A stretch of DNA of 64,000 nucleotides from Methanosarcinales archaeon (GTDB lineage: Bacteria > Omnitrophota > Gorgyraeia > Duberdicusellales > 4484-171), in the NCBI GenBank assembly GCA_048634245.1, contig JAIWAR010000001.1, positions 13,889 to 77,888 of the forward strand, read 5' to 3'. This document shows, one piece after another, positions 12,817 to 31,475 of this stretch. The translations under genes were made by a program, and so were the position numbers. Position 1 is the first letter of the stretch. The number at the start of each line of letters is the position of its first letter. Under the pieces are notes generated by a model. The model was not told the DNA's origin. It worked only from the letters and a program-made list of their open reading frames with translations, and made no database searches.

Positions 12817-12826
12817 TATTTATCTT

Positions 12827-13282
12827 ATGAACTTCGTTAGAAATTTTGTTTTATCAAGCGGACAGAGCGGTATTCCTAATAAGGTAAAACCCGCTGGAGT
12901 TGCAATCTCTAACGGGATGAAAAAGCTGCTACCTTTAATTTTACCGGTTATTATATTCCTTTTCACATTGCTATATCTGCATCAAAAAGTCCAGCTTTAC
13001 GTTGAGGCCTATCGGTTGAGTAATACTTTTTATTGCCATAAGGAACTTATTGATAAGAGGGATTACTTGATGTATAATTTTGCCAAGGAAGCAACTCTGG
13101 CTAAAGTTAACCAATGGGCGATTCGAAAAGATTTTACTCCTATAGATAAAAACAGGGTAATGGCTTTGAATACGAAGAGGCAAGCACAGAGCATTAGTAA
13201 TAGCAGAGTAGCTTTATTACTTAGCCGAATCTTAAAAGCCTCAACGCCTACTTCAACCGCCTTGGCTGAAGAGAAAAGATAA
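12827..13282 (+). CDS. ftsL: Cell division protein FtsL (start probably at the internal MKKLLPL)
   Basis: Single TM helix plus a coiled-coil region. Located between rsmH and ftsI. Confidence 0.6.
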   Translation: MNFVRNFVLSSGQSGIPNKVKPAGVAISNGMKKLLPLILPVIIFLFTLLYLHQKVQLYVEAYRLSNTFYCHKELIDKRDYLMYNFAKEATLAKVNQWAIRKDFTPIDKNRVMALNTKRQAQSISNSRVALLLSRILKASTPTSTALAEEKR

Positions 13283-13319
13283 GGTTTCTTTCCGGAATCT
13301 TTAAAATTAAAAGCGAGAA

Positions 13320-14990: not shown

Positions 14991-16135
14991 AGAATCTAAA
15001 AATTATCGGTATTACCGGTACTAACGGCAAGACTACTACCGTATTTCTTGCTTATCACCTGCTTAAGGAAATGGGCCAGAAATCTTCATTAATAGGCACA
15101 ATAAAATATATTATTGGTTCAAAAGTATACAAAGCAAATCTTACTACTCCGGGTTTTATTGATCTTGGCAAGCTTTTAAAAAAAGCCGAAGATTCGGGCA
15201 GCCGCTTTGTGGTTATGGAAGTTTCATCTCACGCTCTTGCTCAAGGAAGGGTTAAGGGGCTAAAATTTTCTCGCTGTGTATTTACTAATTTAAGCCGAGA
15301 TCACCTTGATTACCATAAGACTTTAAATAATTATTTTAATACTAAAAAAAAGCTATTCTTTTCTCAAGGAACCCCATTTTCACTAATAAACGTTGACGAC
15401 CGATATGGGAAGAAGATATTTAAAAAAATAAAGCGGGGGTTGAGTTTTTCAATTGCAGAGCAATCTGACTTTAAGGCTGAGAATATAGTTTTAGGCAAGA
15501 GAGGTTCTTGTTTTGACCTGATCTTTTCGGGGAAGTCTTATCCGGTAAAAACCCGGCTCTGCGGGCGGCATAATGTTTTAAATATTTTAGGAGCTATAAG
15601 CCTGGTTTTTACTTTAGGTTTTTCTCTTCCAAAGTTAGTAAGAGCTGTAAGCAATTTTAAACCGGTGGAAGGAAGGTTAGAGCCGGCAGCTTCCGATATA
15701 TTTATTGACTATGCTCATACTCCCGATGCCTTGGATAATGCATTGAAAAGCCTGCGTGAGGCCGGTTACGAGAAGATTATTTGTGTTTTTGGCTGCGGTG
15801 GAGACAGGGATAAAGGTAAGCGGAGAGCAATGGGGCAAATAGCCGCGTATGAGGCGGATTTTACTTTTATCACCTCAGATAACCCTCGCAGTGAAGAACC
15901 GGGTAAGATTTGTTCTCAGGTAGAAAAAGGGTTTAAGAAGAATAACTATTTAATTATTGTTGATAGGCGCAAGGCAATAAGAGAAGCGATAAAAGTTTTT
16001 CTTAAAAATAAGGAGGGCAAATCCTGTCTTTTGATAGCGGGAAAAGGCCATGAGAATTATCAAATTATCAAGGATAAAAAGATACGATTTAGTGATAAAC
16101 GGGTAGTAAAAGAACTTTTAAACATGAAGCTATGA
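14987..16135 (+). CDS. murE: UDP-MurNAc-L-Ala-D-Glu:meso-DAP ligase lacking the usual N-terminal domain
   Basis: Starts directly at GITGTNGKTTT. Carries the MurE-specific DNPR motif. At 382 aa it is about 100 aa shorter than typical MurE. Overlaps the ftsI stop. Confidence 0.8.
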   Translation: MKNLKIIGITGTNGKTTTVFLAYHLLKEMGQKSSLIGTIKYIIGSKVYKANLTTPGFIDLGKLLKKAEDSGSRFVVMEVSSHALAQGRVKGLKFSRCVFTNLSRDHLDYHKTLNNYFNTKKKLFFSQGTPFSLINVDDRYGKKIFKKIKRGLSFSIAEQSDFKAENIVLGKRGSCFDLIFSGKSYPVKTRLCGRHNVLNILGAISLVFTLGFSLPKLVRAVSNFKPVEGRLEPAASDIFIDYAHTPDALDNALKSLREAGYEKIICVFGCGGDRDKGKRRAMGQIAAYEADFTFITSDNPRSEEPGKICSQVEKGFKKNNYLIIVDRRKAIREAIKVFLKNKEGKSCLLIAGKGHENYQIIKDKKIRFSDKRVVKELLNMKL

Positions 16136-16198
16136 TAAAATACTGTTTTTTCTCTTCCGGCACGATTTTCCCCTTCGGGTCGTCAAAAATTACCTAAA

Positions 16199-16235
16199 AA
16201 ACGCCTCCTAGCCTAACGGACTCGGCGTTTTTCTT
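16199..16235 (+). terminator. Hairpin plus T-run in the murE-murF gap (possible terminator or attenuator)
   Basis: AAACGCC...GGCGTTT forms a 7 bp stem with an 18 nt loop, followed by TTTTTC. A C(UUCG)G-type tetraloop hairpin lies just upstream at ~16170..16179. Confidence 0.3.
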
Positions 16236-16312
16236 AACGGTATTTTTTGACTAAAATCGTGGGTTGTTCAAAAACAGTATTTTATCATTGCGCTAAATAT
16301 AATATACAAAAA

Positions 16313-17680
16313 ATGATTATTTCAGATTTTAAAATTTTAGAGCGGCTCCTGAAGCCAAGCCAGATTTATAACCTCTATCATTTTAAATCTGTAAAAGGGT
16401 TTTCGCTTGACTCCCGCTCAATAGCCGGGGGTGAGGGTTTTGTGGCTGTCCGGGGTAAATACCACGATGGCCACGCTTTTATCAAAAAAGCTATAGCTAA
16501 AGGAGCCTCGTTTATTGTTGCCGAAGAGTATATACCGGTTAAGCCCAAAATTCCTTTTTTTGTTGTTGACGATACTTATCAGGCCTTAAGGTCAATTGCC
16601 GTCTATATACGTAAGAAAAAAAAGCCTTTTGTTTATGCGATTACCGGTTCGCTTGGTAAGACTACCACCAAGGAGATGCTTGGTTTTCTTCTTTCCCCTT
16701 ATTTCAAAGTTTTAACCAATAAAGGGACAGAAAATAATCTTCTCGGGGTGGTAAAGACAATTTTTTCACTTAGAGATGAGGAGATAATGATTTTGGAATT
16801 AGGAACAAATATGAAAGGAGAAATCGAGTCTTTAGCCGGGATTGCTCTTCCTGATGTAGGGGTAATTACCTTCATAAAGCCTGTCCATCTGGAAGGGCTG
16901 GGGAGTTTAAAGGGAGTTTTTAGTGAAAAAATTTCCTTGCTTAATGTTAATCCTAAGATGAAAGTTATTTTAAACCGTGATGACCCCTATTTGGCCGGGG
17001 TTAAAATGAACAAAATCTCTAACCGGGTTTATTGGTTTGGTAAAAAACGCGATAATCATCTTTTTGGGCGGCCAAGCAAAGGAATAAGCCGGAGTTCGAC
17101 TTTTCTCATTCAAGATAAGTATGAGTTAACTCTTCCTCGTTACTGCGAGGGATTTATTACTAATGTTTTAGCAGCGTTGCTTGCGGCAAGGATTGCCGGT
17201 ATTCCTTTAAAAGCGTTAGTTGAGAGAATGAATCATTTTCAGAATTTTTTGCCTTTAAGGATGCAGATAGATAAAATTAAAGGGTTTTCTATCCTAAATG
17301 ATGCTTATAATGCCAACCCTTATTCTTTTCAAGCGGCTTTTGAGAATTTGAAAAAGTGTTCTTTGAAAAAAGTAGCTGTAATCGGGGATATGTTGGAGTT
17401 GGGCAAAAGAAACAGGTATTATCATGAGCTTTTAGCCGGGCAGATTTTAAATTGTGAATTTAGCTATTGCTTAACTCTGGGAAAGCATACTTTATATTTA
17501 AACAAAAAGCTTCGAGGTTTAGGATATAAAAAAGCCTTCCATTTTATGTCTCAGGAGGCTATTGCTCAATTTATTAATAAGAGGATTGGCGTAAGCCCTC
17601 AAAACAAGAAAAGATATTTGATTTTTCTTAAAGGTTCGCGTAAGATGGAAACAGAGAAAATAATTAAATATTTAAGATGA
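16313..17680 (+). CDS. murF: UDP-MurNAc-tripeptide:D-Ala-D-Ala ligase (the ORF track starts at 16247; the conserved N-terminus begins at MIISDF)
   Basis: SLDSR...GEGFVAV and ITGSLGKTTTKEM motifs. Confidence 0.85.
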   Translation: MIISDFKILERLLKPSQIYNLYHFKSVKGFSLDSRSIAGGEGFVAVRGKYHDGHAFIKKAIAKGASFIVAEEYIPVKPKIPFFVVDDTYQALRSIAVYIRKKKKPFVYAITGSLGKTTTKEMLGFLLSPYFKVLTNKGTENNLLGVVKTIFSLRDEEIMILELGTNMKGEIESLAGIALPDVGVITFIKPVHLEGLGSLKGVFSEKISLLNVNPKMKVILNRDDPYLAGVKMNKISNRVYWFGKKRDNHLFGRPSKGISRSSTFLIQDKYELTLPRYCEGFITNVLAALLAARIAGIPLKALVERMNHFQNFLPLRMQIDKIKGFSILNDAYNANPYSFQAAFENLKKCSLKKVAVIGDMLELGKRNRYYHELLAGQILNCEFSYCLTLGKHTLYLNKKLRGLGYKKAFHFMSQEAIAQFINKRIGVSPQNKKRYLIFLKGSRKMETEKIIKYLR

Positions 17681-18759
17681 TTTATCACCTTCTTTACCCC
17701 CTAACCGAGTATTTTTCTATCTTTAATCTTACTAAATATATCACTTTCCGCAGCGGGTGCGCTTTTGTTACTTCTTTTATTGTTGTAATGATGCTTTGGA
17801 AAGTTACCTTAAAGAGATTGAAGAAACTAAAGATAGTAGAGAAAATAGATATGTACGGCCACGTTCATTTGGAAGCTCTTCATGAAGAGAAAAAAGGGAC
17901 TCCTACTATGGGTGGAGTTTTGATTCTTTTTGCAGTTTTGGTAACTACTCTTCTTTGGGGCAGATGGGATAATCATTTTATTTGGCTGGTTATCCTGGTC
18001 ACTATTTCTTTAGGCAGTTTGGGGTTATGCGATGATTTTCTAAAGGTTAAGCGGGGTAAAGGCCTAAGCCGGGGTAAGAAGCTATTTTGGCAGAGTTTAA
18101 TCGGAGTGTTGCTGGGGGTATTGATCGTAGCCAGCAAAAACTTTCCCACCACCTGGAGTTTTCCTTTTCTAAAGAAAGTGGTAGTCGATTTGGGTTATTT
18201 TTATATTTTCTGGGCCGCGCTTATGGTTGTGGCTGCCTCTAATGCGGTTAATTTTACTGACGGCCTTGACGGCCTGGCAATCGGAGCCTTAATCGGAAAC
18301 TTTTTAATTTTTGGATTTTTAAGTTATATTGTCGGGCATATGAAGTTTGCCGATTATCTCTTTATTCCTTACATAAAGGGCGCCGGGGAGTTAACTGTTT
18401 TTTGTTTTTCTCTGATGGGGGCCGGCTTAGCTTTCCTGTGGTTTAATTCTTATCCTGCCGAGGTTTTTATGGGGGATGTTGGCGCTTTAGCTTTAGGCGG
18501 AGCTATCGGGGCGATAGCCCTGCTAATAAAACAAGAATTTCTTCTTTTTATAAGCGGGGGATTATTTGTAATTGAGGCTTTAAGTGTTATTTTGCAGATG
18601 TTATCGGTAAAATTTAGAGGCAAGAGACTATTCAAAGCTGCTCCTTTGCACCATCATTTTCAAGTAGTGGGCTGGAAAGAGCCCAAGATAATTATTCGTT
18701 TTTGGATTGTTTCAATTCTGTGTGCAGTCATAGCTTTAATTACCCTTAAAGTACGGTGA
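17677..18759 (+). CDS. mraY: Phospho-N-acetylmuramoyl-pentapeptide transferase
   Basis: Polytopic membrane protein with the MraY motifs (GTPTMGG, NAVNFTDGLDGLA). Confidence 0.9.
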   Translation: MIYHLLYPLTEYFSIFNLTKYITFRSGCAFVTSFIVVMMLWKVTLKRLKKLKIVEKIDMYGHVHLEALHEEKKGTPTMGGVLILFAVLVTTLLWGRWDNHFIWLVILVTISLGSLGLCDDFLKVKRGKGLSRGKKLFWQSLIGVLLGVLIVASKNFPTTWSFPFLKKVVVDLGYFYIFWAALMVVAASNAVNFTDGLDGLAIGALIGNFLIFGFLSYIVGHMKFADYLFIPYIKGAGELTVFCFSLMGAGLAFLWFNSYPAEVFMGDVGALALGGAIGAIALLIKQEFLLFISGGLFVIEALSVILQMLSVKFRGKRLFKAAPLHHHFQVVGWKEPKIIIRFWIVSILCAVIALITLKVR

Positions 18760-20024
18760 GAATCGACGATTTTAAAGAGATCTGCGTTGTCGGTTGGGGG
18801 AGGAGTGGAATTTCCCTTTGCAATCTGCTTTTAAGATTGGGGAAAAAAGTGCGGATTAGTGAGATAGCAGAGGCCGGTTCTTTTCCCGATCAGCTGATTA
18901 ATGATTTTATTAAAAAAGGGGTAAAGGTTGAATTTGGCGGCCATAGCGAAAAGTTTATAAAAGCGGCCAAATTATTAGTTTTAAGCCCCGGAGTAAATCC
19001 GGATCGTTCTCCGCTTTCAGAGATTGCCCAAACCCACAATATACCTTGTGTAGGGGAGATAGAGTTTTCTTCCTGGTTAACCCGGGCAAAGCTAATAGCG
19101 ATTACAGGCACTAACGGCAAGACTACCACAGCCCATCTGATTTACCAGTTGCTTAAACAGAGGAAAAAACGGGTTTTTCTCGGAGGCAATATCGGCATTC
19201 CTTTTTCCTCTTTTGTCTTAGATGCTAAAAAAGGAGATTTTATCGTTTTAGAAGTGAGTTCTTTTCAACTGGAGACTATAGTTGAATTTAGGCCTTATGT
19301 GGCTGCCTTTTTGAATATTGAACCTGACCATCTTGATCGTTATCCGGATTTCAGGGATTATTTTCAGGCCAAGCTAAATATATTTAAAAATCAAGAAAAA
19401 GGCGATTGGGCTATCCTGAATAAAAATATGGATTTTTGTACGCAGGTTAAGAAAGCTGTAAAATGTCAAACAGTTTATTTTTCCGAAGAGTTTCCCAATG
19501 AAAATTTTTCCTGTGCTTATAGAATTGCCGCTGTTTTTGGTCTAGGAAAGGCTGACTGCGGCAGCATCTTCTCTCATTTTTTGGGCCTTCCACATCGCCT
19601 GCAGCAAATTCGGCAGATAAACAAAGTAACTTTTATTAATGATTCTAAAGCCACAAACCCTTCTTCTACAGCCTGGGCTCTTTCTAATACCAAGGCTCCG
19701 ATAATCCTTCTCGCCGGAGGCCGCGACAAGGGGTTAGATTACTCTTTAATCCCGTCCTTCTTAAAGAAGATAAAAAAGGTAAATCTTTTTGGAGAAGCTT
19801 CAGTCAAGATAAAAGAGGCTTTGGGCTTTAAGATAGAGGTTGAGATTTTTCCATCATTAGAGGAAGCGGTTTTGTCTTCTCACCGGGAAGCAGTGCCCGG
19901 AGATACGATTCTTCTTTCTCCCATGTGTGCCAGCTTTGATATGTTTTCCGATTACGAAGATAGAGGCAATAAGTTTACAGAAATCGTGAATAACCTTCCT
20001 TGCACCCCCGAGGTGCAAGGATAA
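18756..20024 (+). CDS. murD: UDP-MurNAc-L-Ala:D-Glu ligase
   Basis: N-terminal Rossmann motif VVGWGRSG and the ITGTNGKTTT motif. Confidence 0.9.
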   Translation: MRIDDFKEICVVGWGRSGISLCNLLLRLGKKVRISEIAEAGSFPDQLINDFIKKGVKVEFGGHSEKFIKAAKLLVLSPGVNPDRSPLSEIAQTHNIPCVGEIEFSSWLTRAKLIAITGTNGKTTTAHLIYQLLKQRKKRVFLGGNIGIPFSSFVLDAKKGDFIVLEVSSFQLETIVEFRPYVAAFLNIEPDHLDRYPDFRDYFQAKLNIFKNQEKGDWAILNKNMDFCTQVKKAVKCQTVYFSEEFPNENFSCAYRIAAVFGLGKADCGSIFSHFLGLPHRLQQIRQINKVTFINDSKATNPSSTAWALSNTKAPIILLAGGRDKGLDYSLIPSFLKKIKKVNLFGEASVKIKEALGFKIEVEIFPSLEEAVLSSHREAVPGDTILLSPMCASFDMFSDYEDRGNKFTEIVNNLPCTPEVQG

Positions 20025-20032
20025 TTTAAGTT

Positions 20033-21136
20033 ATGGTGGGTTTAAAGAGAGAGAGAAGATTTTTGGCTATAGCATTTCTGGCTTTAACTCTTTTTGGTAT
20101 TCTTATGATTTACGAATCATCAAGTGTATACGCGTTTAAGGCTGAAAAAGATGCCGCTTATTTTTTTAAACGGCAGTTTCTTTTCTTTCTTGTGGGCGTA
20201 TTTTTCTTCTTTATTACACTTTTAGCCGATTTAGAATTTTTAAGGCGGCATAGCAAGGAGTTTTTGCTTTTTACTTTCTTTTGCCTGGTGCTGATTATTT
20301 TTATTGGGAAGAAAGCCGGGGGAGCAAAGAGGTGGCTGCAATTAGGATCGTTTGGTTTTCAGCCTTCGGAAATGCTAAAGATTTCTTTTCTGCTTTATTG
20401 CGCGGATTATTGCCGAAGAAAACGAAGCCTTATAAAGAATGTTAGGCTGGGACTTTTTCCTTTGGGGATTGTTTTGTCCGCGGTATGCATTTTGCTTATT
20501 GTACAGCCGGATTTAGGAACAGCTGTTTTTTGGGTTCTTTGGACCATTCTTTTTCTTTTTCTCTTTGGTGCCCGGAAAAAGCATTTAGTTTTTGTTATTT
20601 TGACCGGAGCGACTATATCTTTTTTTCTTATAAAACTATATCCCTATCGTTTGAACCGAATCGTTGCTTATCTTAACCCCTTTGATGATCCCAGGGGGGC
20701 AGGGTTTCAATTGATTCAGTCTCAGATTGCTTATGGAGTTGGAGGTGTTTGGGGAGTGGGGTTAGGTGAAGGCTTGCAGAAGTTGCTTTTTTTGCCGGCG
20801 GCTCATACTGATTTTATTTTTTCAATTATTGCTGAGGAGTTTGGCCTTTGGGGTTCATTGGGTTTAATCTTTATCTTTTTTCTGATATTTCATAAGATGT
20901 CTAAAATCGCGGAATCTTCCCAGGATAGTTTTCGCAGGGGCCTTTTATGGGGCATAATCCTTATTTTTTTTCTAGAGATAGCGATAAATATTGGGGTTAG
21001 TTGCGGCCTTTTTCCTACCAAAGGGCTGCCTTTGCCTTTTATGAGCTACGGGGGAAGTAATTTAGTTGTTCACTGTATTCTTCTAGGCTTATTTTTTAAC
21101 GCTTCCCGCATTGACAAACCCAATACCGCTTATTGA
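20033..21136 (+). CDS. ftsW: SEDS-family peptidoglycan polymerase FtsW
   Basis: Ten-TM SEDS topology. Conserved FtsW/RodA motifs (PDLGTA, HTDFIFS, GLFPTKGLPLPF). Confidence 0.9.
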   Translation: MVGLKRERRFLAIAFLALTLFGILMIYESSSVYAFKAEKDAAYFFKRQFLFFLVGVFFFFITLLADLEFLRRHSKEFLLFTFFCLVLIIFIGKKAGGAKRWLQLGSFGFQPSEMLKISFLLYCADYCRRKRSLIKNVRLGLFPLGIVLSAVCILLIVQPDLGTAVFWVLWTILFLFLFGARKKHLVFVILTGATISFFLIKLYPYRLNRIVAYLNPFDDPRGAGFQLIQSQIAYGVGGVWGVGLGEGLQKLLFLPAAHTDFIFSIIAEEFGLWGSLGLIFIFFLIFHKMSKIAESSQDSFRRGLLWGIILIFFLEIAINIGVSCGLFPTKGLPLPFMSYGGSNLVVHCILLGLFFNASRIDKPNTAY

Positions 21137-21142
21137 GAATTT

Positions 21143-21167
21143 TTGATCAAAGCCAGGCTTTGATCAA
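21143..21167. promoter_or_regulatory. Perfect 25 bp palindrome TTGATCAAAGCC-A-GGCTTTGATCAA, 7 nt after the ftsW stop
   Basis: The 12 bp arms are exact reverse complements. A related copy lies at 39199..39223. Confidence 0.7.
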
Positions 21168-21198
21168 GATAAAAACAACTATAGCGTTAAAATAACCC

Positions 21199-21227
21199 TT
21201 GAACGAGGGCTACAATTTCTTTATAAT
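21199..21227 (+). promoter_or_regulatory. Putative internal sigma70-type promoter upstream of murG (TTGAAC - 17 nt - TATAAT)
   Basis: -35 element at 21199..21204, -10 element at 21222..21227. Confidence 0.45.
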
Positions 21228-21282
21228 ATTAAATACAGGTTCAATTTATCCCCGTAAAATAAGAGTTATTTTTGAAAGATAA

Positions 21283-22299
21283 ATGAAAGTATTATTAGCT
21301 TGCGAGAGAAGTGCCGGCCATATTTTTCCGGCTTTAGCGCTGGGTGAGAAAATAGAAAAAAAATCTAATATTTATTTTTTTGCTACTTCACCCTTTCTTA
21401 AAAAATACATCGAAAAACAAGGGTTTAATTGTTTTGGCAAGAGCTTAGTTTTCCGAAACTTAATTATTGAGGGTACCTGGCGTTTATTTGAGTCTATATA
21501 CCTTATTCTAAAATTGAGGCCGGAGAAAGTTATTGGATTCGGCGGCCGGGATTCATTTTTTCTGGTTTTATTCAGCTCTTTATTAAGGATAAGAACCGTT
21601 ATCTATGAGCCTAATATAAAGCTGGGAAAGGCAAACAGATTTCTTATGCCTTTTGTGGATGAGGTGTTGCGCGGTTTTGAAGGGGGAAGGGGTAAAAAGG
21701 GCAGAACTATCGGTATTCCTTTACGGAAAAATATAAAGAAAATAGATAAGTGCCAGGCTCGGAAGATTTTGAATTTTAAGGAGGAACCGGTTATCTTTTG
21801 TCTCGGAGGTAGTCAAGGTTCGTCTTTTCTTAATCATGTATTTGTAAGGTTTATCCAGAATTTTAAAGGGAATTGCCAGGTAATCCATCTTACCGGAAAG
21901 GATGAGTATCCGGAGATGCTATCCCGATATGCTGAAATAAAGAACAGGAGCTTTGTCAAAGATTTTTATTACCAGGTAGAGGTTTTATACAGCGCTGCTG
22001 ACTTAGTGGTTTCCCGGGCCGGAGCGGTTACTTTGGGAGAAATTTCATTTTATGGACTGCCGGTTATTTTGCTGCCTCATTTTAAGGCTGGCAGCCATCA
22101 GGTGGAAAATGCTTTGTATTTCGAAAGAAAAGGGGCAGCTAAGGTGTATTCGCAGGATGAGTTTTCTTTTGAAGATTTTAGCCGTTCGCTCAATAGGCTT
22201 ATCGAGGATAAGTGTTTGCGCCAAACTATGAAGGATAATTTAGGGAGGATAAAATTAGGGGTTAGCTATGAGGATTTTAATAATAGCAATTATTTTTAG
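21283..22299 (+). CDS. murG: Undecaprenyldiphospho-muramoylpentapeptide beta-N-acetylglucosaminyltransferase
   Basis: GT28 fold. N-terminal ERSAGHIFPALAL motif. Confidence 0.85.
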   Translation: MKVLLACERSAGHIFPALALGEKIEKKSNIYFFATSPFLKKYIEKQGFNCFGKSLVFRNLIIEGTWRLFESIYLILKLRPEKVIGFGGRDSFFLVLFSSLLRIRTVIYEPNIKLGKANRFLMPFVDEVLRGFEGGRGKKGRTIGIPLRKNIKKIDKCQARKILNFKEEPVIFCLGGSQGSSFLNHVFVRFIQNFKGNCQVIHLTGKDEYPEMLSRYAEIKNRSFVKDFYYQVEVLYSAADLVVSRAGAVTLGEISFYGLPVILLPHFKAGSHQVENALYFERKGAAKVYSQDEFSFEDFSRSLNRLIEDKCLRQTMKDNLGRIKLGVSYEDFNNSNYF

Positions 22300-23086
22300 T
22301 ATACTTACCAGTAGTTTCGGTTTCCGGAGAGAAGAAGGCGGGTGTGTTTTTGCAAAACAGAAAGAATTTAATCAGTTGCGCTCTGAACATTTTATAATTA
22401 GCTATAGAGAAGGTGTTGATAAATCATATGTTAGAAAGATAAAGAATATAGCTGAGAAGTATTATCGGATTATAACCCAGGCTTTTAATTTTCACCGGGA
22501 TGAATTCTGGATATGGGAGAATCGGGCTAAGGTTTTTATAGCTAATGACAGGGACGATTACTTAAATAGTTTTAGCTGCGCTCCCTGGTCAACCGCTTGT
22601 GTTCATCATCGCGTGAAGAAAATTTATATTTATCCCGACCAAAAGAATTTTGCCCCCGTTTTTATTCACGAGCTGACTCATATAATTTTTCGTGAACATA
22701 TAGGAGAAGGTGATTTTCCTCTTTGGCTGGATGAGGGGGTTGCTTGTTATATGGAAGATAAGTATGGAGATGGAAATTATAAGAGGGCGCTTAATTTTCT
22801 AAAGAGAAAAATAAAAGATGATACTTATATAAAATTTTCCCAACTAAATAAAGGGACAAGTGATAATTTAGGAGGGAAAGGTGAAGAATATATTAATCTT
22901 TTTTACCTGGAGTCGTTTTCCATAATTAATTTTATTATGAAAAGATATGGGAAGTATAGATTTTCCAGCTTCCTTCGTTTATTGAAGAAGGGGAAAAGAA
23001 TAGAAGAAGCAATGGCTAAGGTTTTTTACGATTTTAAGGATCTCGATAAGTTGGAGGCTAAGTGGAAGGATTACTATCTAAAGTAA
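22268..23086 (+). CDS. Secreted putative zinc metalloprotease (HExxH) inserted between murG and murC
   Basis: Signal peptide. HELTHIIF...EG gluzincin-like motif. No close family recognised. Confidence 0.45.
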   Translation: MRILIIAIIFSILTSSFGFRREEGGCVFAKQKEFNQLRSEHFIISYREGVDKSYVRKIKNIAEKYYRIITQAFNFHRDEFWIWENRAKVFIANDRDDYLNSFSCAPWSTACVHHRVKKIYIYPDQKNFAPVFIHELTHIIFREHIGEGDFPLWLDEGVACYMEDKYGDGNYKRALNFLKRKIKDDTYIKFSQLNKGTSDNLGGKGEEYINLFYLESFSIINFIMKRYGKYRFSSFLRLLKKGKRIEEAMAKVFYDFKDLDKLEAKWKDYYLK

Positions 23087-24459
23087 AGAATATTTATCTG
23101 GTAGGTATCGGCGGAATAGGTATGAGCGGTTTGGCTCTTCTTCTTAAAGATAGAGGCTTTCAGGTTAGAGGCTCAGATAGCAAGGATTCAACAAACGTAA
23201 GAATGTTAAGAGACCGGGGTATCAAAGTTTTTATCGGCCATAGAGAGAGCCAGGTTAGTCGTGATATTGATATTTTAGGCTATTCTTCGGCGGTAGATGA
23301 AGAGAACCCCGAGATCATTCAGGCAAAGAAAAAAGGTTTAAATATTTTTAAGAGAGCCGAACTTTTAGCTGAGCTTTGCAGGGGGAGAAAAACAATTGCT
23401 ATCTCCGGCAGTCACGGGAAGACTACTACTACTTCGTTATTAGGGTATCTTCTTACTTCTTTGGGATATAAGCCGGCAGTATTTGTAGGAGGAATATCTC
23501 TTAATTACTCCCGGGGGGCCTGGTGGGGAGATGATTATTTTGTTATTGAGGCTGATGAGAGTGACGGGAGTTATCTTTGTTTTGACCCCTGGGTGTCTAT
23601 AATTACTAATGTTGACCGTGAACACCTTGATTACTATGGGAGTTTAGAAAAGTTAAGAAAAAGCTTTTTAAAATTTGCTAAAGAAACTCGAGGTAAGGTT
23701 ATAGTTTTCGGTGATGACCCTCATTTAGCAGAAATTTTTTCAGGTATAGATATAGACGGAATTACTTTTGGCTGGGGGAAACAGAATACTTTAGGGGGGA
23801 TGAATTTTAGATTCGATGGTGAATTTAGCTGTTTTGATTTATATATAAAGGAAAAGTTTATTACTTCAGTCAAAACTCCTCTTGTAGGCAGGTACAATTG
23901 CCTTAACACCCTGGCTGTTTTTGCTTTTTTCTATTATTTAGGCGAAGATTTAGAGAAAGTCAAGCAAGCTCTTTTAGATTTTAAGGGAACGAAAAGGCGC
24001 TTTGAAGTAAAGGGGAAAATCAAAGGCGTGACTTTTATTGATGATTATGCTCATCATCCTACAGAAATCAAAGCGGTTTTAAGCGCCGGCAGGCTTTTAA
24101 ACCCTAAGCGTTTATTCGTAATTTTTCAGCCTCATCGTTTCTCGCGGGTTAGTTCATTAAGGCCTGAATTTGTCCAATGCTTTTTTGAAACAGACCACTT
24201 GGTGGTAACTGACATTTATACAGCCTCAGAAGAGAATACATTTGGGGTTAGTGCCAAGAAGCTGGCAGAAGAGACGGGTAAATGTTCAGCTGTTAAGGCA
24301 GAATATATTCCTAAGAATGAACTTATTGCCGGTATTACTTCCCGGCTTAAAGATGGGGATCTTGTATTGGCTTTAGGCGCCGGAGATATAAATATTATGA
24401 TGGAGGATATTCGCAGGTGTTTTCACGAAAGAACGGGTTTAAAAAAGACGTTGATTTAA
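23062..24459 (+). CDS. murC: UDP-N-acetylmuramate:L-alanine ligase
   Basis: GIGGIGMSGLA and ISGSHGKTTTT motifs. Confidence 0.9.
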   Translation: MEGLLSKVKNIYLVGIGGIGMSGLALLLKDRGFQVRGSDSKDSTNVRMLRDRGIKVFIGHRESQVSRDIDILGYSSAVDEENPEIIQAKKKGLNIFKRAELLAELCRGRKTIAISGSHGKTTTTSLLGYLLTSLGYKPAVFVGGISLNYSRGAWWGDDYFVIEADESDGSYLCFDPWVSIITNVDREHLDYYGSLEKLRKSFLKFAKETRGKVIVFGDDPHLAEIFSGIDIDGITFGWGKQNTLGGMNFRFDGEFSCFDLYIKEKFITSVKTPLVGRYNCLNTLAVFAFFYYLGEDLEKVKQALLDFKGTKRRFEVKGKIKGVTFIDDYAHHPTEIKAVLSAGRLLNPKRLFVIFQPHRFSRVSSLRPEFVQCFFETDHLVVTDIYTASEENTFGVSAKKLAEETGKCSAVKAEYIPKNELIAGITSRLKDGDLVLALGAGDINIMMEDIRRCFHERTGLKKTLI

Positions 24460-25271
24460 GAAATTACACTTCAATAAAGATAGGAGGCAGGGCAAAGTAT
24501 TTTTATACTGCCCTGGACCTTGATTGTTTGCGTAGGATTGTTCAGGATATCGGCTCAGATTTTTACCTTTTAGGTAAGGGATCTAATCTTCTTATAAAGG
24601 ATTGTCTGATCTGGAATCCGATAATAAAATTAGGAGATAATTTCAGTTTTATAAAAAAAAAAGGTAACTATTTAGAAGTAGGCGCTTCGACTCCCCTTTC
24701 TTCTTTAATTAAATATTGCCTGGAAAAAGATCTCTTAGGGTTAGAGAATTTAGCGGGTATCCCGGCTACGGTAGGGGGCCTTTTAGCTATGAATGCTGCT
24801 TCTTTTGGCAGAAGTATTTCCGCGGTTGTTGAAGAAGTTACTGTTATGAGCCGGGAGAGTGATATCAAGAAACTTAAAAGTTCGGAGATTTCCTTTGGGT
24901 ATAGGTCTTCAACTCTCGAGAAGTATATTGTTTTAGAGGCCAAATTTAAATTATTTTCAGGAAAAAATTTAAAGCAAAAGGTAGGTGAATTGCTGGCGAG
25001 GCGCCTTGGTCTACAAGACTTTGATTCTCCCAACTGCGGATGTATTTTTAAAAATACTCCGGAGTTTAGCGCGGGTTTTCTTGTTGATTCCTGTCATCTT
25101 AAGGGGCAGCGATGCGGTGGTGCCCAAATTTCTCCGCGGCACGCTAATTTTATTATTAATTTAGGTTCAGCTAAATATAAAGATGTTGCGTATCTGATTC
25201 AAAAGATTAAAGACCAAGTTTATAAAAAGCATAGTATAATCTTACAGGAAGAAATTAAACGCTGGAAATAA
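24417..25271 (+). CDS. murB: UDP-N-acetylenolpyruvoylglucosamine reductase
   Basis: FAD-binding N-terminus (NYTSIKIGGRAKYF). MurB-like C-terminus. Confidence 0.85.
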   Translation: MFSRKNGFKKDVDLRNYTSIKIGGRAKYFYTALDLDCLRRIVQDIGSDFYLLGKGSNLLIKDCLIWNPIIKLGDNFSFIKKKGNYLEVGASTPLSSLIKYCLEKDLLGLENLAGIPATVGGLLAMNAASFGRSISAVVEEVTVMSRESDIKKLKSSEISFGYRSSTLEKYIVLEAKFKLFSGKNLKQKVGELLARRLGLQDFDSPNCGCIFKNTPEFSAGFLVDSCHLKGQRCGGAQISPRHANFIINLGSAKYKDVAYLIQKIKDQVYKKHSIILQEEIKRWK

Positions 25272-25298
25272 AAGAGTTCATAGTACATAGAGCTAATT

Positions 25299-26225
25299 AT
25301 GAAGATAGGAATTTTAGGCGGAGGCATATCAACGGAGAGAGAGATTTCACTTACTTCGGCAAAACAAGCTTATGAAGCTTTGGTCAATAAAGGCCTGAAT
25401 GTTGTTTTTGTTGATATTTTTACTAAAGAGGAAAACGAAGTTAAAAAACTTATCCGCAGCCTAAATATTGATTTAGCTTTTATTGCTCTTCACGGAGAAT
25501 TTGGCGAAGATGGCCGGGTCCAGGAGATTTTAGAAAGTTTAGGTGTTGCTTATACCGGTTCAGGGCCGCGGGCGAGCGCTTTGGCAATGGACAAAATTTG
25601 CTCTAAAGAAGCCTTCAAAGCCAAGAAGGTTCCTAACCCCAATTTTTCAATTTGTTTGAAAGGAGAAAGCATTTGGGCAAAGATTGATTATCCGCTGGTG
25701 GTAAAACCCTGTTCCTCCGGTTCCAGTATAGGCGTTTCTATCGTAAGAGATAGGAGTTTTTTTAAACCGGCGCTTGAGCTGGCTTTTTCTTATTCGGACA
25801 GAGTGATTTTAGAGGAGTATATTGAAGGTAGAGAATTGACGGTTGGGATTTTGGATGATCAGCCTTTAACAATAGTTGAAATTCTTCCTAAAAAAGAACA
25901 TTTTGATTTTGATGCTAAATATAGCAAAGGGATGTGTGATTTTATTGCTCCGGCTTCCTTAGATGAGAGTCTCAGCAGCCAAATCAAGAGTGTAGGTTTA
26001 GCTGCTTATAAGGCTTTGGGGTGCCGGCATTTTTCCCGCGTAGATATCCGTTTAGACAAAAACAACTCTCCCTTTGTTTTAGAGGTTAATACGATACCAG
26101 GGCTGACTCTTCACAGTCTTTTTCCGCTGGCAGCTAAGTGTGCGGGAATCAATTTTGATAATTTAATTCTTAAAATGGTAGAGTTAGCTTTACCCCGTTA
26201 CAAATTAGGAGCGGTAACGGGGTAA
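25299..26225 (+). CDS. ddl: D-alanine--D-alanine ligase
   Basis: ATP-grasp fold. Ddl motifs (HGEFGEDG, VKP...GSSIGV). Confidence 0.9.
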   Translation: MKIGILGGGISTEREISLTSAKQAYEALVNKGLNVVFVDIFTKEENEVKKLIRSLNIDLAFIALHGEFGEDGRVQEILESLGVAYTGSGPRASALAMDKICSKEAFKAKKVPNPNFSICLKGESIWAKIDYPLVVKPCSSGSSIGVSIVRDRSFFKPALELAFSYSDRVILEEYIEGRELTVGILDDQPLTIVEILPKKEHFDFDAKYSKGMCDFIAPASLDESLSSQIKSVGLAAYKALGCRHFSRVDIRLDKNNSPFVLEVNTIPGLTLHSLFPLAAKCAGINFDNLILKMVELALPRYKLGAVTG

Positions 26226-26250
26226 GTTTGATATTTGTAACGGAGGTTGC

Positions 26251-27051
26251 ATGAGAAGAAAGAAGCGCAAAAGGTTTAAGCAATTTAATTTTCATTTAGA
26301 TCCTAAACTAAGCCGATGGGGGAGCCTGGCCTTTTGTTGCCTTATCCTTCTTATCGGAATAGGGTATGCTATCTATACCTCCGGTGTTTTCAAAATAAAA
26401 AAAGAAGATATAAAATCTAACCTTTTTTTGAGTAGGAGCTTAAAAGAAAAAATAAAGGGTAAATCTTTATTCGATGTAGATATTAAATCGCTTTCTTCAA
26501 CCTTCGTAAGAGCGCACCCCGAATATAAAGAAGTCTATGTTTATCGGGTGTTTCCTTCTTGTTTAAAAATTGACGGAGTCGAGAGAATACCTTTTGCCCA
26601 GATAAAAGATAGAAGATTTTACCCGGTAGATAAGGAAGCGATTGTATTAAATGAAGGCAGCCGCCAACTCCTGGATAATCTTATTTTAATAGAGATTGGC
26701 AGTAATAGCCGTAGCCTTAAAAAAGGAAGTAGTGTCAAAAGCAGGAGATTAGAGTATGCTTTTGATTTAATTGAAGCCATAAATGAAGAGGATTTTCTTA
26801 ATGAAGGCCGGGTTGCGCTGATAAACGCCAGTAGCTTAGAGGCTATTGATTTTATCTTTATCCGGAAAAGTTGTGATGCCGGAGACGGCCTTAGCTGTAG
26901 CGGAATAAGGGTAAAAGTGGGCAGGGGTGATTTCAAGCGGAAACTCAAGCTCTTTAAAAACCTTATGGATGATGAGTTAGAAGGCAAGATGTCCTTACTT
27001 AAGTATATAGACCTAAGGTTTAAGAAAGTATATATGGATTTTAAAAGATGA
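26251..27051 (+). CDS. ftsQ: Cell division protein FtsQ/DivIB
   Basis: N-terminal TM helix plus POTRA-like region. Located between ddl and ftsA. Confidence 0.7.
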   Translation: MRRKKRKRFKQFNFHLDPKLSRWGSLAFCCLILLIGIGYAIYTSGVFKIKKEDIKSNLFLSRSLKEKIKGKSLFDVDIKSLSSTFVRAHPEYKEVYVYRVFPSCLKIDGVERIPFAQIKDRRFYPVDKEAIVLNEGSRQLLDNLILIEIGSNSRSLKKGSSVKSRRLEYAFDLIEAINEEDFLNEGRVALINASSLEAIDFIFIRKSCDAGDGLSCSGIRVKVGRGDFKRKLKLFKNLMDDELEGKMSLLKYIDLRFKKVYMDFKR

Positions 27052-28193
27052 GAGGAGTTTGTGCTATTGCTCTAGACAGAGATAAAACTTTTATCTCTTT
27101 TGCGCGCCTCAAGCGAGGTCAGCTTACTTTTCTTGAAGAATCAGAAATTCCTGTTGTAAATTCCGGCGACGATATCGTTTTTTTCTTAAAAGAGAATTTT
27201 GAAACTTTAGATCGAAGGATAAAAGAAGTCGAAGGGAAGTATTCTTGCCGGTGTGAGAAGATTTTTTTAGAATTACCCTGGGAGGCCGCTAAGAGCAAAA
27301 TTGTTGAAGAGACAGTTACTTTAAAGGCACGAAAGAAAATTACTTCCGGGGATATCTCGCGGGCCAAAAAGTACATTGAAGACAAATTTCTCAGCTGGGA
27401 TGATTTTTGTATTCATAATATTGTTATAAACTATGGAATAGAGGACCTTAACTACGAGAAGCCCCCTTTAGGAGTATGGGCAAAGAAGATTAAATTGCAA
27501 TTACTTCTGGTTTGGATTAAAGATAAGATACAAAGGGAGACCGAAGATATTTTTGATAATTTAGATAGAAAATTTGGTGCTATGATTGCTCCCCAAATTA
27601 GTAGATTTTCTTCTGTTTTCACCGGTAAGGATAAAGGGCAGGGTGTGGTTAGCATTGATTACGACCAAAGCCGATTTATAGCCAGAAGCAAAAATAATTT
27701 TATTTTTGGCAAAGGATTCAGTTTTTCTTTTCGCGGAGTAATTGAGCAATTGGCAAAGAGATTTATCCTGGGAACTTCTTTGGCTGAGGAAATATTCCAG
27801 CGCTATATCTCCTTTAAAGAGATACCGTATTTTAAGGAGATAACAGTTAAAGACGCATCCGGCTATGTAAATCTAAGTATTCAGGCTCTCAATTCGTTTA
27901 TTAAAAATTATATTAAGGGTGAAATTTGTTACATCTTGCAAGAAATAAGAGAAGATGTTACCAACGATGATTTTACGATTTCATTCGTTGGCAGATTAAA
28001 CGCTAAAGAGGGGTTTTATGGGTTTTTAAAAAATCACATTCCCTACCCTTTTAAAACTCCGCTTCAGAGATTAACAATTTCGTCTTCTTACGGATGCTTA
28101 CGCTACGGGGTATCTCGTTTTTTAGAAGTTGATCATAAAAATAATGGGTCAGGGTTTCGCCGCATTTTGGATATATATCGTGAATATTTTTAA
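27048..28193 (+). CDS. ftsA: FtsA-like actin-fold protein with degenerate nucleotide-binding motifs
   Basis: CAIALDRDKT resembles the phosphate-1 loop. The region matching phosphate-2 (DIGGGTTD in canonical FtsA) reads VVSIDYDQSRF. C-terminal FSFRGVIEQLAKRFILGTSLAEEIFQRY matches the FtsA adenosine motif region. Confidence 0.55.
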   Translation: MRGVCAIALDRDKTFISFARLKRGQLTFLEESEIPVVNSGDDIVFFLKENFETLDRRIKEVEGKYSCRCEKIFLELPWEAAKSKIVEETVTLKARKKITSGDISRAKKYIEDKFLSWDDFCIHNIVINYGIEDLNYEKPPLGVWAKKIKLQLLLVWIKDKIQRETEDIFDNLDRKFGAMIAPQISRFSSVFTGKDKGQGVVSIDYDQSRFIARSKNNFIFGKGFSFSFRGVIEQLAKRFILGTSLAEEIFQRYISFKEIPYFKEITVKDASGYVNLSIQALNSFIKNYIKGEICYILQEIREDVTNDDFTISFVGRLNAKEGFYGFLKNHIPYPFKTPLQRLTISSSYGCLRYGVSRFLEVDHKNNGSGFRRILDIYREYF

Positions 28194-28213: not shown

Positions 28214-30148
28214 ATGGCTAATAAGAATAATATTTATGGTAATTTTTTAAAGGGCCTTCAGGTAGCTCTTACCAATACTTCGGTCTATTTTAAAGAACAC
28301 CCTTTTTTTGTAAGGTCTGTAGAGAACTTACGAAAGAATATTGATGAGCTTTTATTGTCAGTAAATCCTTTAATAATGGGTGTTACCTCAGATTCTTTAT
28401 CCTTTGGTGAGGAATATTTAAAAGGAGAAAAAGTATACGAAAAAATAGCTGTTTTTTTTCACCGCCGAAAGGTAAAGGTGATAAGGTTTAATCAAGGAGT
28501 GCGCAACGAGGAATTAATTACTTTTCTTACCAACGCGAATTTATCACCTAAAGATATTTTGTTAAGGGGAGGGCTAAGCAGTATTTTAAGAGAAGCCCGT
28601 CTTGAGCACATTGTAGTTGAAGATTTGGATTATTCACAGCTTTTAAAGGGTAATGATGGGGAAGAATCTAGCGATATCTGGTTATATTTACTGAAGAAGA
28701 GCCTTACCCAGGGTGATTTTAAGAAAATAGACGAGCTGGCTGACGGTTTTCAAAAAGTATTAACGGGGTTTCAAGTCAAAGATTTGGCGGATAGCGAAGA
28801 GATAAAAGGGAATATCAATGAACTTTTCAGTTATCTTAAAAATAAAGATAAGAGCAGGTTTTCTCAATGTTCAAAGGCTTTAACAAGGGCGATTTTAAAG
28901 AGTGGAGGCCGATTAAAAAAAGGTGAGGTTGATAAGTTGAGAATATTCTTGAAGGATTTAAACGCGGAAGATATTTCCAGTGTTTTACTGGAGCAATTTC
29001 AGGGTAAAGGTGAATTAGATCCTTTAAGCCTTAATTTATTTTCCAAACTCATTAACAAAGGAAAGCATGAAGAAGTTGCCGTGTCTTTAGCCAAGAGTTT
29101 AGAAGATGATGAGAGGTTAACGAAAAATACCAAGGTAGCAGCCGGTATTAGAGAGCTGATCTTTTTGCCGGATTCCTCAACCTACGAATCAAAAATTTAC
29201 CATGACCGCCTGGCTTCGATTTTAGGAAATATTACTCTGGGTGCGGGTTTATCTTTTGACCGCAGCCATGTTGAAGGAAACTACCGTCTTATTCTCCTTG
29301 ATTTATTTATCTTAGAACTAAGCTCAAAGAGGCTGGGGCTGGTTCTAGATAGCATTTTGCATGAGCTTGATAAGGTGCCGGAAGAGGCAAGCCCGGAATA
29401 TGTGGAAAGTTTCATAAAAGCGTTGAAGGAAAAGAAGAAAAAAACACCGGAATTTAATTCTCTTTTTCCGGAAGTAAATAAACACATAGCTGCTTTTGCG
29501 GAAAAAGTCATCCTTAGCCAAGATCGCTTTTCGGATCCGGAGGCCTTAATAGATATTATAGATTCCAGCAGCGAGGGAGCAGAATTTTATCTGGATAAAA
29601 TATTTAAGGAAGATAAAGTTAGTCCTTATATTCTAAAATTATTTTTTAAGCTTTTCCCGGACCAACTACCGCTTTTCTGCCAAAATTTTGACAAAAAGAT
29701 TTCTAATATCCGGTTTGTTGAAAAAATTATGGAAAATTTGTTTACTCTGAAGCCGGCTTTGAGCCTTGAGATTCTTAAGCACATCTTTTCTTTGTCCAAT
29801 GGCTTTTTAAAGGTAGAGGCTTTGAAAAAAATGAAAGAATTACATTTAGAGGACGAGGGACTTTTGCTTTCTGTTCTTGATAAAGGAGATTTTTTGCAGC
29901 GCAAGCAAGCCCTTTTAGCTATGCTTGGTAATTCTTTTTTGCTCTCTAAAGCCGCCGGAATGCTTCTGGCCATTTCCAATCCTTTGGGATTGAAGAGCAA
30001 GGTTATTGAAAAAAATTTAAAGCTTATAGGCGAAATTCCTTTTTCCCAAGCCAAGGTGTATTTACATGCGTTAAGTAAATATAAGTTTTTTTGGAATAGG
30101 AGTATAAGAAGAAAGGCTAAAAAGATTTTAGAGAAAAATGGAATTTGA
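28214..30148 (+). CDS. Alpha-helical repeat protein with an N-terminal domain paralogous to that of the downstream HD-GYP protein; function unknown
   Basis: N-terminal ~100 aa alignable with the N-terminus of 30138..31475 (FLK.L......Y..EH..F..S...). The remainder is helical and Leu/Lys-rich. Overlaps the next gene by 11 nt. Confidence 0.5.
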   Translation: MANKNNIYGNFLKGLQVALTNTSVYFKEHPFFVRSVENLRKNIDELLLSVNPLIMGVTSDSLSFGEEYLKGEKVYEKIAVFFHRRKVKVIRFNQGVRNEELITFLTNANLSPKDILLRGGLSSILREARLEHIVVEDLDYSQLLKGNDGEESSDIWLYLLKKSLTQGDFKKIDELADGFQKVLTGFQVKDLADSEEIKGNINELFSYLKNKDKSRFSQCSKALTRAILKSGGRLKKGEVDKLRIFLKDLNAEDISSVLLEQFQGKGELDPLSLNLFSKLINKGKHEEVAVSLAKSLEDDERLTKNTKVAAGIRELIFLPDSSTYESKIYHDRLASILGNITLGAGLSFDRSHVEGNYRLILLDLFILELSSKRLGLVLDSILHELDKVPEEASPEYVESFIKALKEKKKKTPEFNSLFPEVNKHIAAFAEKVILSQDRFSDPEALIDIIDSSSEGAEFYLDKIFKEDKVSPYILKLFFKLFPDQLPLFCQNFDKKISNIRFVEKIMENLFTLKPALSLEILKHIFSLSNGFLKVEALKKMKELHLEDEGLLLSVLDKGDFLQRKQALLAMLGNSFLLSKAAGMLLAISNPLGLKSKVIEKNLKLIGEIPFSQAKVYLHALSKYKFFWNRSIRRKAKKILEKNGI

Positions 30149-31475
30149 AAGGATTGAACTTTTTTTAAAGAATCTAATGTCTTCCTGGGGGGCGGCTCGG
30201 GTGTACGGCACTGAACACAAGCTGTTCATAGGGTCTCTTGATGCGGTTTGTGATAGCTTAACGGCTGAATTGGCTGATAAAGATGAGCTGGTTATAGGCA
30301 TATTGGGCCAGGAGTTAGCTAGTGGTGAGAATATATTTTTTGAATTAAGTAAAAAAACAGTTCAGTCTGTTGAACACCTAAAGAAGATAAATATTGAGAA
30401 AATAACCTTTCATAGGGGTATAACCAAAGAAGAGTTAAGCAAATTTATTTCTTTTCTCATCACTCCGGCAGAAAAAATACAATCTGCGCCTCAAGAGTAT
30501 TCGTTAGCATTAGGAATAAGAAATATTGAGGTGAATAAAATTAAAGCTCCCGCAGAGAGTTCTTTTGGCCGGAGCGAAGCAGAAAAAATCGAATTTGTAT
30601 GCTATAAAAATTGCCTGCAAAAGCTTTCTCAGTCTTTCGAAGCCTTAGTTAGCGATGATGCGGTTGATAATTTGAGTTTAAGATTTATTGTTAAGGATAT
30701 TATGGAAAACTTAAGCGGTAAGTATCAGATTTTTTCTAAACTTAGGCAGACAAAGAGCTATGATATGAGTACTTTTATGCACCTTTTAAATGTAAGCATT
30801 CTTTCAATTTATTTTTCGCATGAACTGGGGTTTTCCCGTGATGATTGTCTGAGTATTGGTATTGCCGGGTTATTCCATGATATTGGTAAGCTTTATATTG
30901 CTAAGAAAATACTTCAGAAAAAGGATAAATTAAGCGAAGAAGAGTTTGATAGAGTGAAGAACCACTCCACCCTCGGCGCAGAAATTCTCTTGAGGCATGT
31001 AGATACTTTAACAACTCTGCCGGTAGTGGTTGCTTTTGAGCATCATTTGAGGTACGATTTAGGAGGTTATCCTAAGCTGTTTTTTCGGCATAAACTCCAC
31101 ATAGCTTCTTCAATTATTACGATATGTGATGTTTATGATGCCCTTACGTTGAGAAGGTCTTATAAGCGGGATTATTCTCCCGAGAGGATTTATGAGATAA
31201 TGATGAAAGATAAGGGTAAGAGGTTTGACCCTCGTCTTTTGGATAAATTTTTTAAGGTAATGGGAGTTTGGCCTATAGGGACAATCGTTGAGCTTACAGA
31301 CACAAGGGTAGGGATTGTAAGAAGCCAGAATGAAGATGATATGTTTTCTCCGGTGGTCGAGACGGTTAACGGAGTTAAAGATGAGCACATAAATTTGAAG
31401 ATTAAAAAAGAGATAAAGATAAAACACTCGCTTAATCCCTTAGGAAAAGGTAAAGAGTACCTTAATTTGATTTAG
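30138..31475 (+). CDS. HD-GYP domain phosphodiesterase (c-di-GMP family) with an N-terminal domain of unknown function
   Basis: HD motif (LFHDIGK) and HHLRYDLGGYPK (the HD-GYP signature). Confidence 0.8.
   Translation: MEFERIELFLKNLMSSWGAARVYGTEHKLFIGSLDAVCDSLTAELADKDELVIGILGQELASGENIFFELSKKTVQSVEHLKKINIEKITFHRGITKEELSKFISFLITPAEKIQSAPQEYSLALGIRNIEVNKIKAPAESSFGRSEAEKIEFVCYKNCLQKLSQSFEALVSDDAVDNLSLRFIVKDIMENLSGKYQIFSKLRQTKSYDMSTFMHLLNVSILSIYFSHELGFSRDDCLSIGIAGLFHDIGKLYIAKKILQKKDKLSEEEFDRVKNHSTLGAEILLRHVDTLTTLPVVVAFEHHLRYDLGGYPKLFFRHKLHIASSIITICDVYDALTLRRSYKRDYSPERIYEIMMKDKGKRFDPRLLDKFFKVMGVWPIGTIVELTDTRVGIVRSQNEDDMFSPVVETVNGVKDEHINLKIKKEIKIKHSLNPLGKGKEYLNLI

Follow-up and report, generated by a model that had tools for sequence, protein, structure and literature searches.

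HD-GYP phosphodiesterases are far less well understood than EAL enzymes. The closest described relative of the enzyme discussed here is PmGH, a GAF-HD-GYP protein of Persephonella marina (PDB entry 4mcw), in which E185, H189, H221, D222, H250, H276, H277 and D305 serve as metal ligands and in which roles have also been assigned to D183 and K225 (PMC4159591). E185 supplies the carboxylate that bridges the third iron of PmGH; an E185A mutant retained some activity, and HD-GYPs without this carboxylate have been placed in a separate subgroup (PMC4159591). A census of the family gives the signature motif as HHExh[D/N]GxGYP, reports that most members have undefined N-terminal regions and describes one of the defined ones, DUF3391, as four strands followed by two helices (10.1101/2021.11.05.467447). 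Here, we describe an overlapping gene pair from a 64,000-nucleotide stretch of contig JAIWAR010000001.1 from an Omnitrophota genome (hereafter, the window). The pair encodes a protein of 644 residues, for which we use the working name X644, and an HD-GYP protein of 445 residues, and the two proteins begin with homologous copies of one domain. The enzyme class is known; in none of the libraries and literature that we searched did we find the N-terminal domain, its duplication onto a HEAT-like partner or the strict gene pairing. The features of the pair, in window positions, are as follows.

28214–30148, + strand: X644 (644 residues), the shared N-terminal domain followed by a predicted all-α HEAT/ARM-like solenoid (open reading frame)
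28214–28648, + strand: shared N-terminal domain of X644, residues 1–145, with Y25 and H29 invariant (model, conservation and hhalign)
28661–30145, + strand: predicted α-solenoid (HEAT/ARM-like) region of X644, residues 150–644
30138–30148, + strand: overlap of 11 nucleotides, where the X644 gene ends and the HD-GYP gene begins (sequence read)
30138–31475, + strand: HD-GYP phosphodiesterase (445 residues) with the shared N-terminal domain (open reading frame; HD_5, E = 1.3e-17; HD, E = 2.8e-9)
30138–30548, + strand: shared N-terminal domain of the HD-GYP protein, residues 1–137, with Y23 and H27 invariant
30723–31262, + strand: HD-GYP catalytic domain, approximately residues 196–375, aligned to PmGH residues 178–354
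31263–31472, + strand: conserved C-terminal extension of ∼70 residues after the HD-GYP domain (conservation)

The two open reading frames (ORFs) overlap by 11 nucleotides, and direct reading of the window at 30138–30148 gives ATGGAATTTGA; both genes and their overlap lie where the initial annotation had placed them. A scan of one genome per species yielded 115 relatives of X644, from which 80 loci were kept. By ORF calling and phmmer, an HD-GYP gene carrying the N-terminal domain is found directly downstream on the same strand in every species locus that has downstream DNA (76 of 76). When the search was started in reverse from three HD-GYP homologues, all three were found to have an overlapping upstream gene that encodes 640–648 residues and has no Pfam match. 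The two genes overlap in 74 of the 80 related loci, by 11 nucleotides in 33 loci and by 17 nucleotides in 19, with the ORF starts set mechanically at the first start codon. The pair is a conserved unit, and the 11-nucleotide overlap suggests translational coupling of X644 and the HD-GYP gene. Records bearing the pair are labelled Omnitrophota or Candidatus Aminicenantes, together with placeholder labels that cluster with either, and all but one of the X644 homologues with a named source come from Candidatus Omnitrophota or Omnitrophica.

Some Aminicenantes loci contain a second pair adjoining the first (L021:12597–15930 and L043:14893–18218, the latter on the − strand). The second pair of L021 is divergent and has the same layout, with the N-terminal domain plus HEAT_2 in the first gene and the N-terminal domain plus HD_5 in the next. 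The X644-like gene of the second pair in L043 is broken into two ORFs, perhaps by a frameshift. When the X644 proteins of loci L005–L084 are placed in a neighbour-joining tree, the Aminicenantes sequences fall into one clade nested among Omnitrophota, a hint that the pair may have moved horizontally from one phylum to the other, the tree being crude and several of the record labels being placeholders.

The relationship between the two N-termini is supported at several levels. Pairwise BLASTP matches residues 11–106 of X644 to residues 9–105 of the HD-GYP protein with 25% identity (E = 8e-7), and comparison of the two families by hhalign (alignments of 30 X644 and 37 HD-GYP sequences) gives a probability of 97.5% and an E value of 7e-12 over 142 columns (1–145 versus 1–143). 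When the X644-family profile is searched against the related loci, it picks up the HD-GYP partner by its N-terminus in essentially all of them (E = 1e-5 to 5e-15), and a joint alignment of 55 N-termini contains essentially one single-residue indel. As judged by these comparisons, the similarity is well beyond chance and is homology. The resemblance proposed in the initial annotation is therefore significant in a profile search as well as pairwise; its length of ∼100 residues does not stand, as the domain spans ∼140 residues. Both families have an invariant Tyr-x3-His motif, formed by Y25 and H29 in X644 and by Y23 and H27 in the HD-GYP protein; its Tyr and His remain invariant across 113 HD-GYP partners, and E99, L100 and F103 are nearly invariant across both families. 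Other invariant positions belong to one family only: H83, R85, K86, K88 and an LDYSQLL motif in X644, and G54, E59, F68 and F91 in the HD-GYP proteins. Since each family has invariant residues of its own, the two copies of the domain are not interchangeable.

The AlphaFold2 model of the N-terminal domain is confident, with a predicted local distance difference test score (pLDDT) of 91.5 and a predicted TM-score (pTM) of 0.85. X644 was modelled independently; residues 11–140 form a block with a pLDDT of ∼86–95 and show the same order of elements, namely helix-helix-strand-strand-strand-helix-strand-helix-helix-helix-strand. The strands that follow the two long helices are predicted to form a three-stranded meander, and the invariant Tyr and His are located at the turn between helix 1 and helix 2. 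No Pfam or NCBIfam model matches the domain, either in the two window proteins or in the 55 aligned members, and a Foldseek search against 350 542 PDB chains returned nothing with an E value below 1 or a TM-score above 0.28. Against PDB sequences, the domain profile retrieved only a designed protein and noise. The domain, which had not been recognized in the initial annotation, is thus described in none of the libraries searched (Pfam, NCBIfam and PDB/Foldseek). With residues 1–190 of the HD-GYP protein as the query, a homologue search found four fragments only; the domain profile matched 5232 representative proteins at E values up to 0.001 (among 1.84 billion), and the best 150 of these 5232 matches are almost all X644-like proteins or fragments.

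Several domains that might have been expected in this position were considered and rejected. DUF3391 (PF11871) does not match either window protein at E values up to 0.1 and is absent among the 25 listed of the 37 Pfam families that are matched by the 55 N-terminal sequences at E values up to 10; its four strands precede two long helices, whereas the modelled domain begins with two long helices that are followed by strands. The DUF3391-HD-GYP proteins Bd1817 and PA4108 resemble the 445-residue protein in having an N-terminal domain of ∼120–140 residues, a helical linker and an HD-GYP domain, but by both topology and Pfam the N-terminal domain is a different one. GAF and PAS have neither Pfam support nor a structural match. 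STAS has a single Pfam match, in one of the 55 sequences at an E value of 0.029, and no structural match.

The assignment of the 445-residue protein to the HD-GYP family, made in the initial annotation, is well supported. In Pfam, HD_5 reaches 64.5 bits (cutoff, 27.2 bits), and matches in the PDB include PmGH (4mcw, E = 4e-26, with the HD-GYP domain aligned over 177 residues), V-cGAP3 (5z7c, E = 5e-15) and a PA4781-type entry (4r8z, E = 4.5e-12). H215, H247, D248, K251, H276, H302, H303, D334 and R340 are invariant in 113 HD-GYP sequences, and G310, Y311, P312, D331 and K343 are kept in 110–111 of the 113. In terms of PmGH, the protein conserves H189, H221, D222, K225, H250, H276, H277, D305, D308, the GYP residues, R314 and K317. 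Of the eight PmGH metal ligands, the family retains seven: six are invariant, and the D305 equivalent is present in 110 of the 113 sequences; the equivalents of K225, D308 and R314 are also invariant, those of GYP and K317 are found in 111 of the 113 and that of D183 in 106 of the 113. Every PmGH residue whose mutation abolished activity is conserved (residue roles from PMC4159591), and from these intact catalytic positions the enzyme should be active, with a metal centre that is probably binuclear. The substrate is most likely to be cyclic di-GMP (c-di-GMP) or pGpG. In 11 loci without linkage to the division and cell wall (dcw) gene cluster, the pair is preceded by a PAS-GGDEF gene, and we count these genes as support for c-di-GMP. 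The protein differs from PmGH in that its N-terminal domain is not a GAF domain and in having a dedicated HEAT-repeat partner, as predicted, that bears the same N-terminal domain.

In the 11 loci just mentioned, the diguanylate cyclase (PAS-GGDEF) gene precedes the pair by ∼2.4 kb and is on the same strand; these loci include L003:7561–8490, L041:3290–4222 and nine others, L041 being among the Aminicenantes-labelled records. The C-terminal extension of the HD-GYP protein (31263–31472) has no family matches; within it, W378, P379, V384, D388, R390, V394, N398, P405, E408, D419 and L420 are each conserved in at least 90% of the sequences.

Our best reading of X644, based on its predicted structure, is a soluble scaffold in which an α/β N-terminal domain of ∼140 residues is followed by ∼500 residues of HEAT/ARM-like solenoid. 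The AlphaFold2 model of X644 consists of stacked helical hairpins, the arrangement that characterizes HEAT/ARM solenoids, and the solenoid ends in a strongly conserved C-terminal motif, F-F-W-N-R-x-I-R-x-K-A. The window X644 has no Pfam HEAT match; a divergent paralogue (L021:12597–14459) matches HEAT_2 at an E value of 5.7e-16. PADLOC defence models gave nothing for X644 and only weak Cas3-HD matches to the HD core of its partner. The A subunit of protein phosphatase 2A, itself a HEAT scaffold, matches X644 in general fold only, with 12% identity and no sequence relationship; X644 has an additional N-terminal α/β domain, and its enzyme partner comes from an unrelated phosphohydrolase family.

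In the window, the pair follows a group of division genes.

11893–27051, + strand: dcw cluster comprising mraW, a 151-residue ORF, ftsI, murE, murF, mraY, murD, ftsW, murG, a peptidase-MA gene, murC, murB, ddl and ftsQ (Pfam)
27048–28193, + strand: divergent FtsA-like gene (381 residues) that ends 20 nucleotides before X644 (TIGR01174 and profile)

The dcw genes are all on the + strand with small gaps, beginning with mraW at 11893. As in the canonical cluster, which ends in ftsQ-ftsA-ftsZ, the order from mraW to ftsQ is standard and an FtsA-like gene follows; in contrast to the canonical cluster, the FtsA homologue is highly divergent and no ftsZ is found after it. It matches TIGR01174 with an E value of 7.8e-9 and 35 bits, against an equivalog cutoff of 176, and a search of the PDB with the profile of its family finds FtsA structures (E = 2.3e-11). 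In place of the phosphate-binding motif DIGGGT it has S-I-D-Y-x-x-S. By these matches, the product of 27048–28193 is classified as a divergent FtsA homologue and not as an equivalog, and it may be unable to bind ATP. Its C-terminal sequence I-Y-R-E-Y-F is nearly invariant.

That the pair directly follows ftsA, as the initial annotation had it, is true of the window and also of relatives: the FtsA-like gene, with full dcw context, is directly upstream of the pair in 16 of the 71 species loci whose upstream DNA extends to 1.2 kb or more. In the other 55 the pair is located among unrelated housekeeping genes in several arrangements; the neighbours include carAB and genes for CTP synthase, glutamate dehydrogenase, a GltD-like protein and an RNase J-like protein. 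A metagenome scan that started from the FtsA-like gene gave 18 loci with downstream DNA, and the pair comes next in 15 of them; of the remaining three, L090 and L091 have a gene resembling monogalactosyldiacylglycerol (MGDG) synthase directly after the FtsA-like gene, and L094 has a different HD-GYP gene. These three loci lack the pair despite the ftsQ–ftsA-like arrangement, and they still have no ftsZ. The dcw cluster of this lineage ends at the FtsA-like gene, pair or no pair, and the dcw placement of the pair is a trait of particular lineages that does not define the module. The proposed tie of the module to cell division therefore does not extend to the family as a whole, with only these 16 of the 71 species loci having the FtsA-like gene upstream.

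A tblastn search with Escherichia coli FtsZ returned nothing with an E value below 1 in the window, and by phmmer no ORF in ∼110 loci resembles FtsZ. No ftsZ occurs within 8–10 kb in any locus, and none follows the FtsA-like gene in the 34 related loci with downstream DNA. The initial annotation had placed the pair where ftsZ normally is; because L090, L091 and L094 lack both the pair and ftsZ, the pair does not fill a slot vacated by that gene. We also rejected the pair as a replacement for FtsZ: there is no sequence similarity to FtsZ, and the predicted fold of X644 is a solenoid, with no tubulin fold. Published reports on FtsZ in the phylum are ambiguous: in 2016, one genome out of three was reported to contain FtsZ (PMC5147048), and a 2025 survey characterized the dcw genes as highly conserved there (PMC12283558).

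Downstream of the pair, separated by gaps of a few bases, are an MGDG-synthase-like glycosyltransferase gene, a lipid A acyltransferase-like gene, a family 2 glycosyltransferase (GT2) gene, pcm and others. There is no convincing terminator between the pair and the dcw genes, and the promoter and terminator scans, whose results were no better than those for shuffled sequence, did not delimit a transcription unit. The tight packing on one strand and the lack of a convincing terminator speak in favour of the suggested co-transcription with the division genes; in one Omnitrophota group that includes this genome, the pair lies at the end of the dcw operon and is probably co-transcribed with it. The dcw-linked loci fall on several deep branches of a rough neighbour-joining tree, and the linkage may be old within Omnitrophota, a point that this tree is too crude to settle.

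We consider it fairly probable that the locus encodes a coupled module of a scaffold and a phosphodiesterase, in which the shared domains bring the two proteins together or detect a common signal. One gene would supply the scaffold and the overlapping gene the same N-terminal domain fused to an HD-GYP domain that is predicted to be catalytically competent, with the overlap giving coupled and roughly equal production of both proteins. The homologous domains would bind one another and so hold the phosphodiesterase on the scaffold; alternatively, the invariant Tyr-x3-His site would let both respond to one signal. The role of the solenoid would then be to recruit nucleotide hydrolysis to a putative partner or to localize it there. 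The homology of the N-terminal domains, the architectures, the conservation of catalytic residues, the strict adjacency and the distribution were computed directly. Several points weigh against this interpretation. The structural statements rest on AlphaFold2 models, and shared domains in neighbouring genes can also arise by duplication without any association. The E185 ligand of the third iron in PmGH is missing from the 445-residue protein, its equivalent being variable across the family and S211 in the window. The window motif, HHLRYDLGGYP, has the HH, D and GYP of the signature with Leu in place of both the Glu and the first Gly (the family consensus is EHHLxYDLxGYP), and there is no GGDEF gene within the window. 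Because the E185 position is unconserved and the signature deviates, activity and substrate could differ from those of the characterized enzymes. The protein might act on 3′3′-cyclic GMP-AMP (cGAMP), pGpG or a cyclic oligonucleotide, or be mainly a receptor, instead of a c-di-GMP phosphodiesterase, an alternative that we regard as somewhat doubtful. It would account for the lost ligand, one of eight, and the altered motif, and it would agree with the separate subgroup formed by HD-GYPs without this carboxylate (PMC4159591), with a cGAMP-specific enzyme (5z7c) as the second-best PDB match and with the lack of a nearby cyclase gene in the window; the conservation of all of the positions at which mutation abolished PmGH activity, the residual activity of E185A (PMC4159591) and the PAS-GGDEF genes in the 11 non-dcw loci argue for the phosphodiesterase.

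The same gene order could also be produced by two proteins that do not interact, each using a copy of a duplicated sensor domain to detect one small-molecule or redox signal, with phosphodiesterase output from one and protein-binding output from the other. The invariant Tyr and His at the helix 1–helix 2 turn look more like a site than like a constraint of the fold alone, and N-terminal domains of HD-GYP proteins are typically sensors (REC, GAF and DUF3391; 10.1101/2021.11.05.467447). Strict adjacency and an overlap that is kept at ∼30% identity, however, are more typical of subunits of one complex, and the family-specific invariant residues make the two copies non-interchangeable. We consider independent sensors quite unlikely. 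A division-coupled module, in which the HEAT scaffold docks on the FtsA-like protein, the HD-GYP enzyme shapes a septal pool of cyclic dinucleotides and ftsZ lies outside the dcw cluster, is likewise unlikely. It draws on the position of the pair right after ftsQ and the FtsA-like gene (gaps of −4 to 94 nucleotides) in 16 species and 15 metagenome loci, an order that is kept where identity to the window falls to 31% for the FtsA-like protein and ∼30% for X644, on the deep branching of the dcw-linked loci and hence possible age of the linkage, on the absence of ftsZ within 8–10 kb of any locus and on the lack of a detected terminator between the pair and the FtsA-like gene. Against this, 55 of the 71 species carry the pair away from dcw genes in several housekeeping neighbourhoods, L090, L091 and L094 do without it, the operon runs on into lipid and glycosyltransferase genes and pcm and is thus of mixed function, and an operon neighbourhood alone is weak evidence of shared function. 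The boldest version of a division role, a divisome-associated HEAT/HD-GYP complex docked on the degenerate FtsA-like protein or on the membrane, where hydrolysis of cyclic dinucleotides gates septal envelope synthesis, seems distinctly improbable; there, the dcw cluster would end in an FtsA-like protein that probably does not bind ATP, with no ftsZ after it. We regard the cell-division angle as weakly supported. In a more modest version of the boldest reading, the N-terminal domain would be a new fold that serves HD-GYP enzymes as a dedicated heterodimerization or sensing module.

One of the undefined N-terminal regions of HD-GYP proteins is defined here as a discrete, confidently modelled domain without a relative in Pfam or the PDB, and the gene pairing offers what would be a concrete example of an HD-GYP enzyme tied to an obligate scaffold partner. 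The pair occurs in two poorly studied and mostly uncultured lineages, Omnitrophota and Aminicenantes. Its recurrent place after a degenerate ftsA, in dcw clusters without ftsZ, is a possible lead to the way in which some Omnitrophota organize division; were the divisome reading true, a nucleotide-signalling layer would be built into a non-canonical division machinery.

Several other features of the dcw region recur. In the dcw group (window 11893–34780 and loci L001, L004–L014, L016, L022, L024–L026, L069 and L085–L106), the MGDG-synthase-like, lipid A acyltransferase-like, GT2 and pcm genes come after the FtsA-like gene, and ftsZ never does. The 151-residue ORF between mraW and ftsI (12827–13282) occupies the usual place of ftsL and has no Pfam match at E values up to 1e-5. 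The peptidase-MA gene (PF13485, E = 3e-14; 22268–23086) lies between murG and murC and overlaps both; it is found at the same position in nearly all dcw-linked relatives, and a second copy lies upstream of murG in L024, L099, L101, L103 and L105. The spot before the MGDG-synthase-like gene repeatedly gathers HD-GYP genes. A further HD-GYP gene is located there in L024 (13784–14944), L026 (13819–14991), L069 (13762–15030), L094 (9848–11002), L095, L099, L101 and L103, and it follows the pair in these loci, except in L094, where it follows the FtsA-like gene. The one example checked, that of L024, is a GAF-HD-GYP gene by Pfam.

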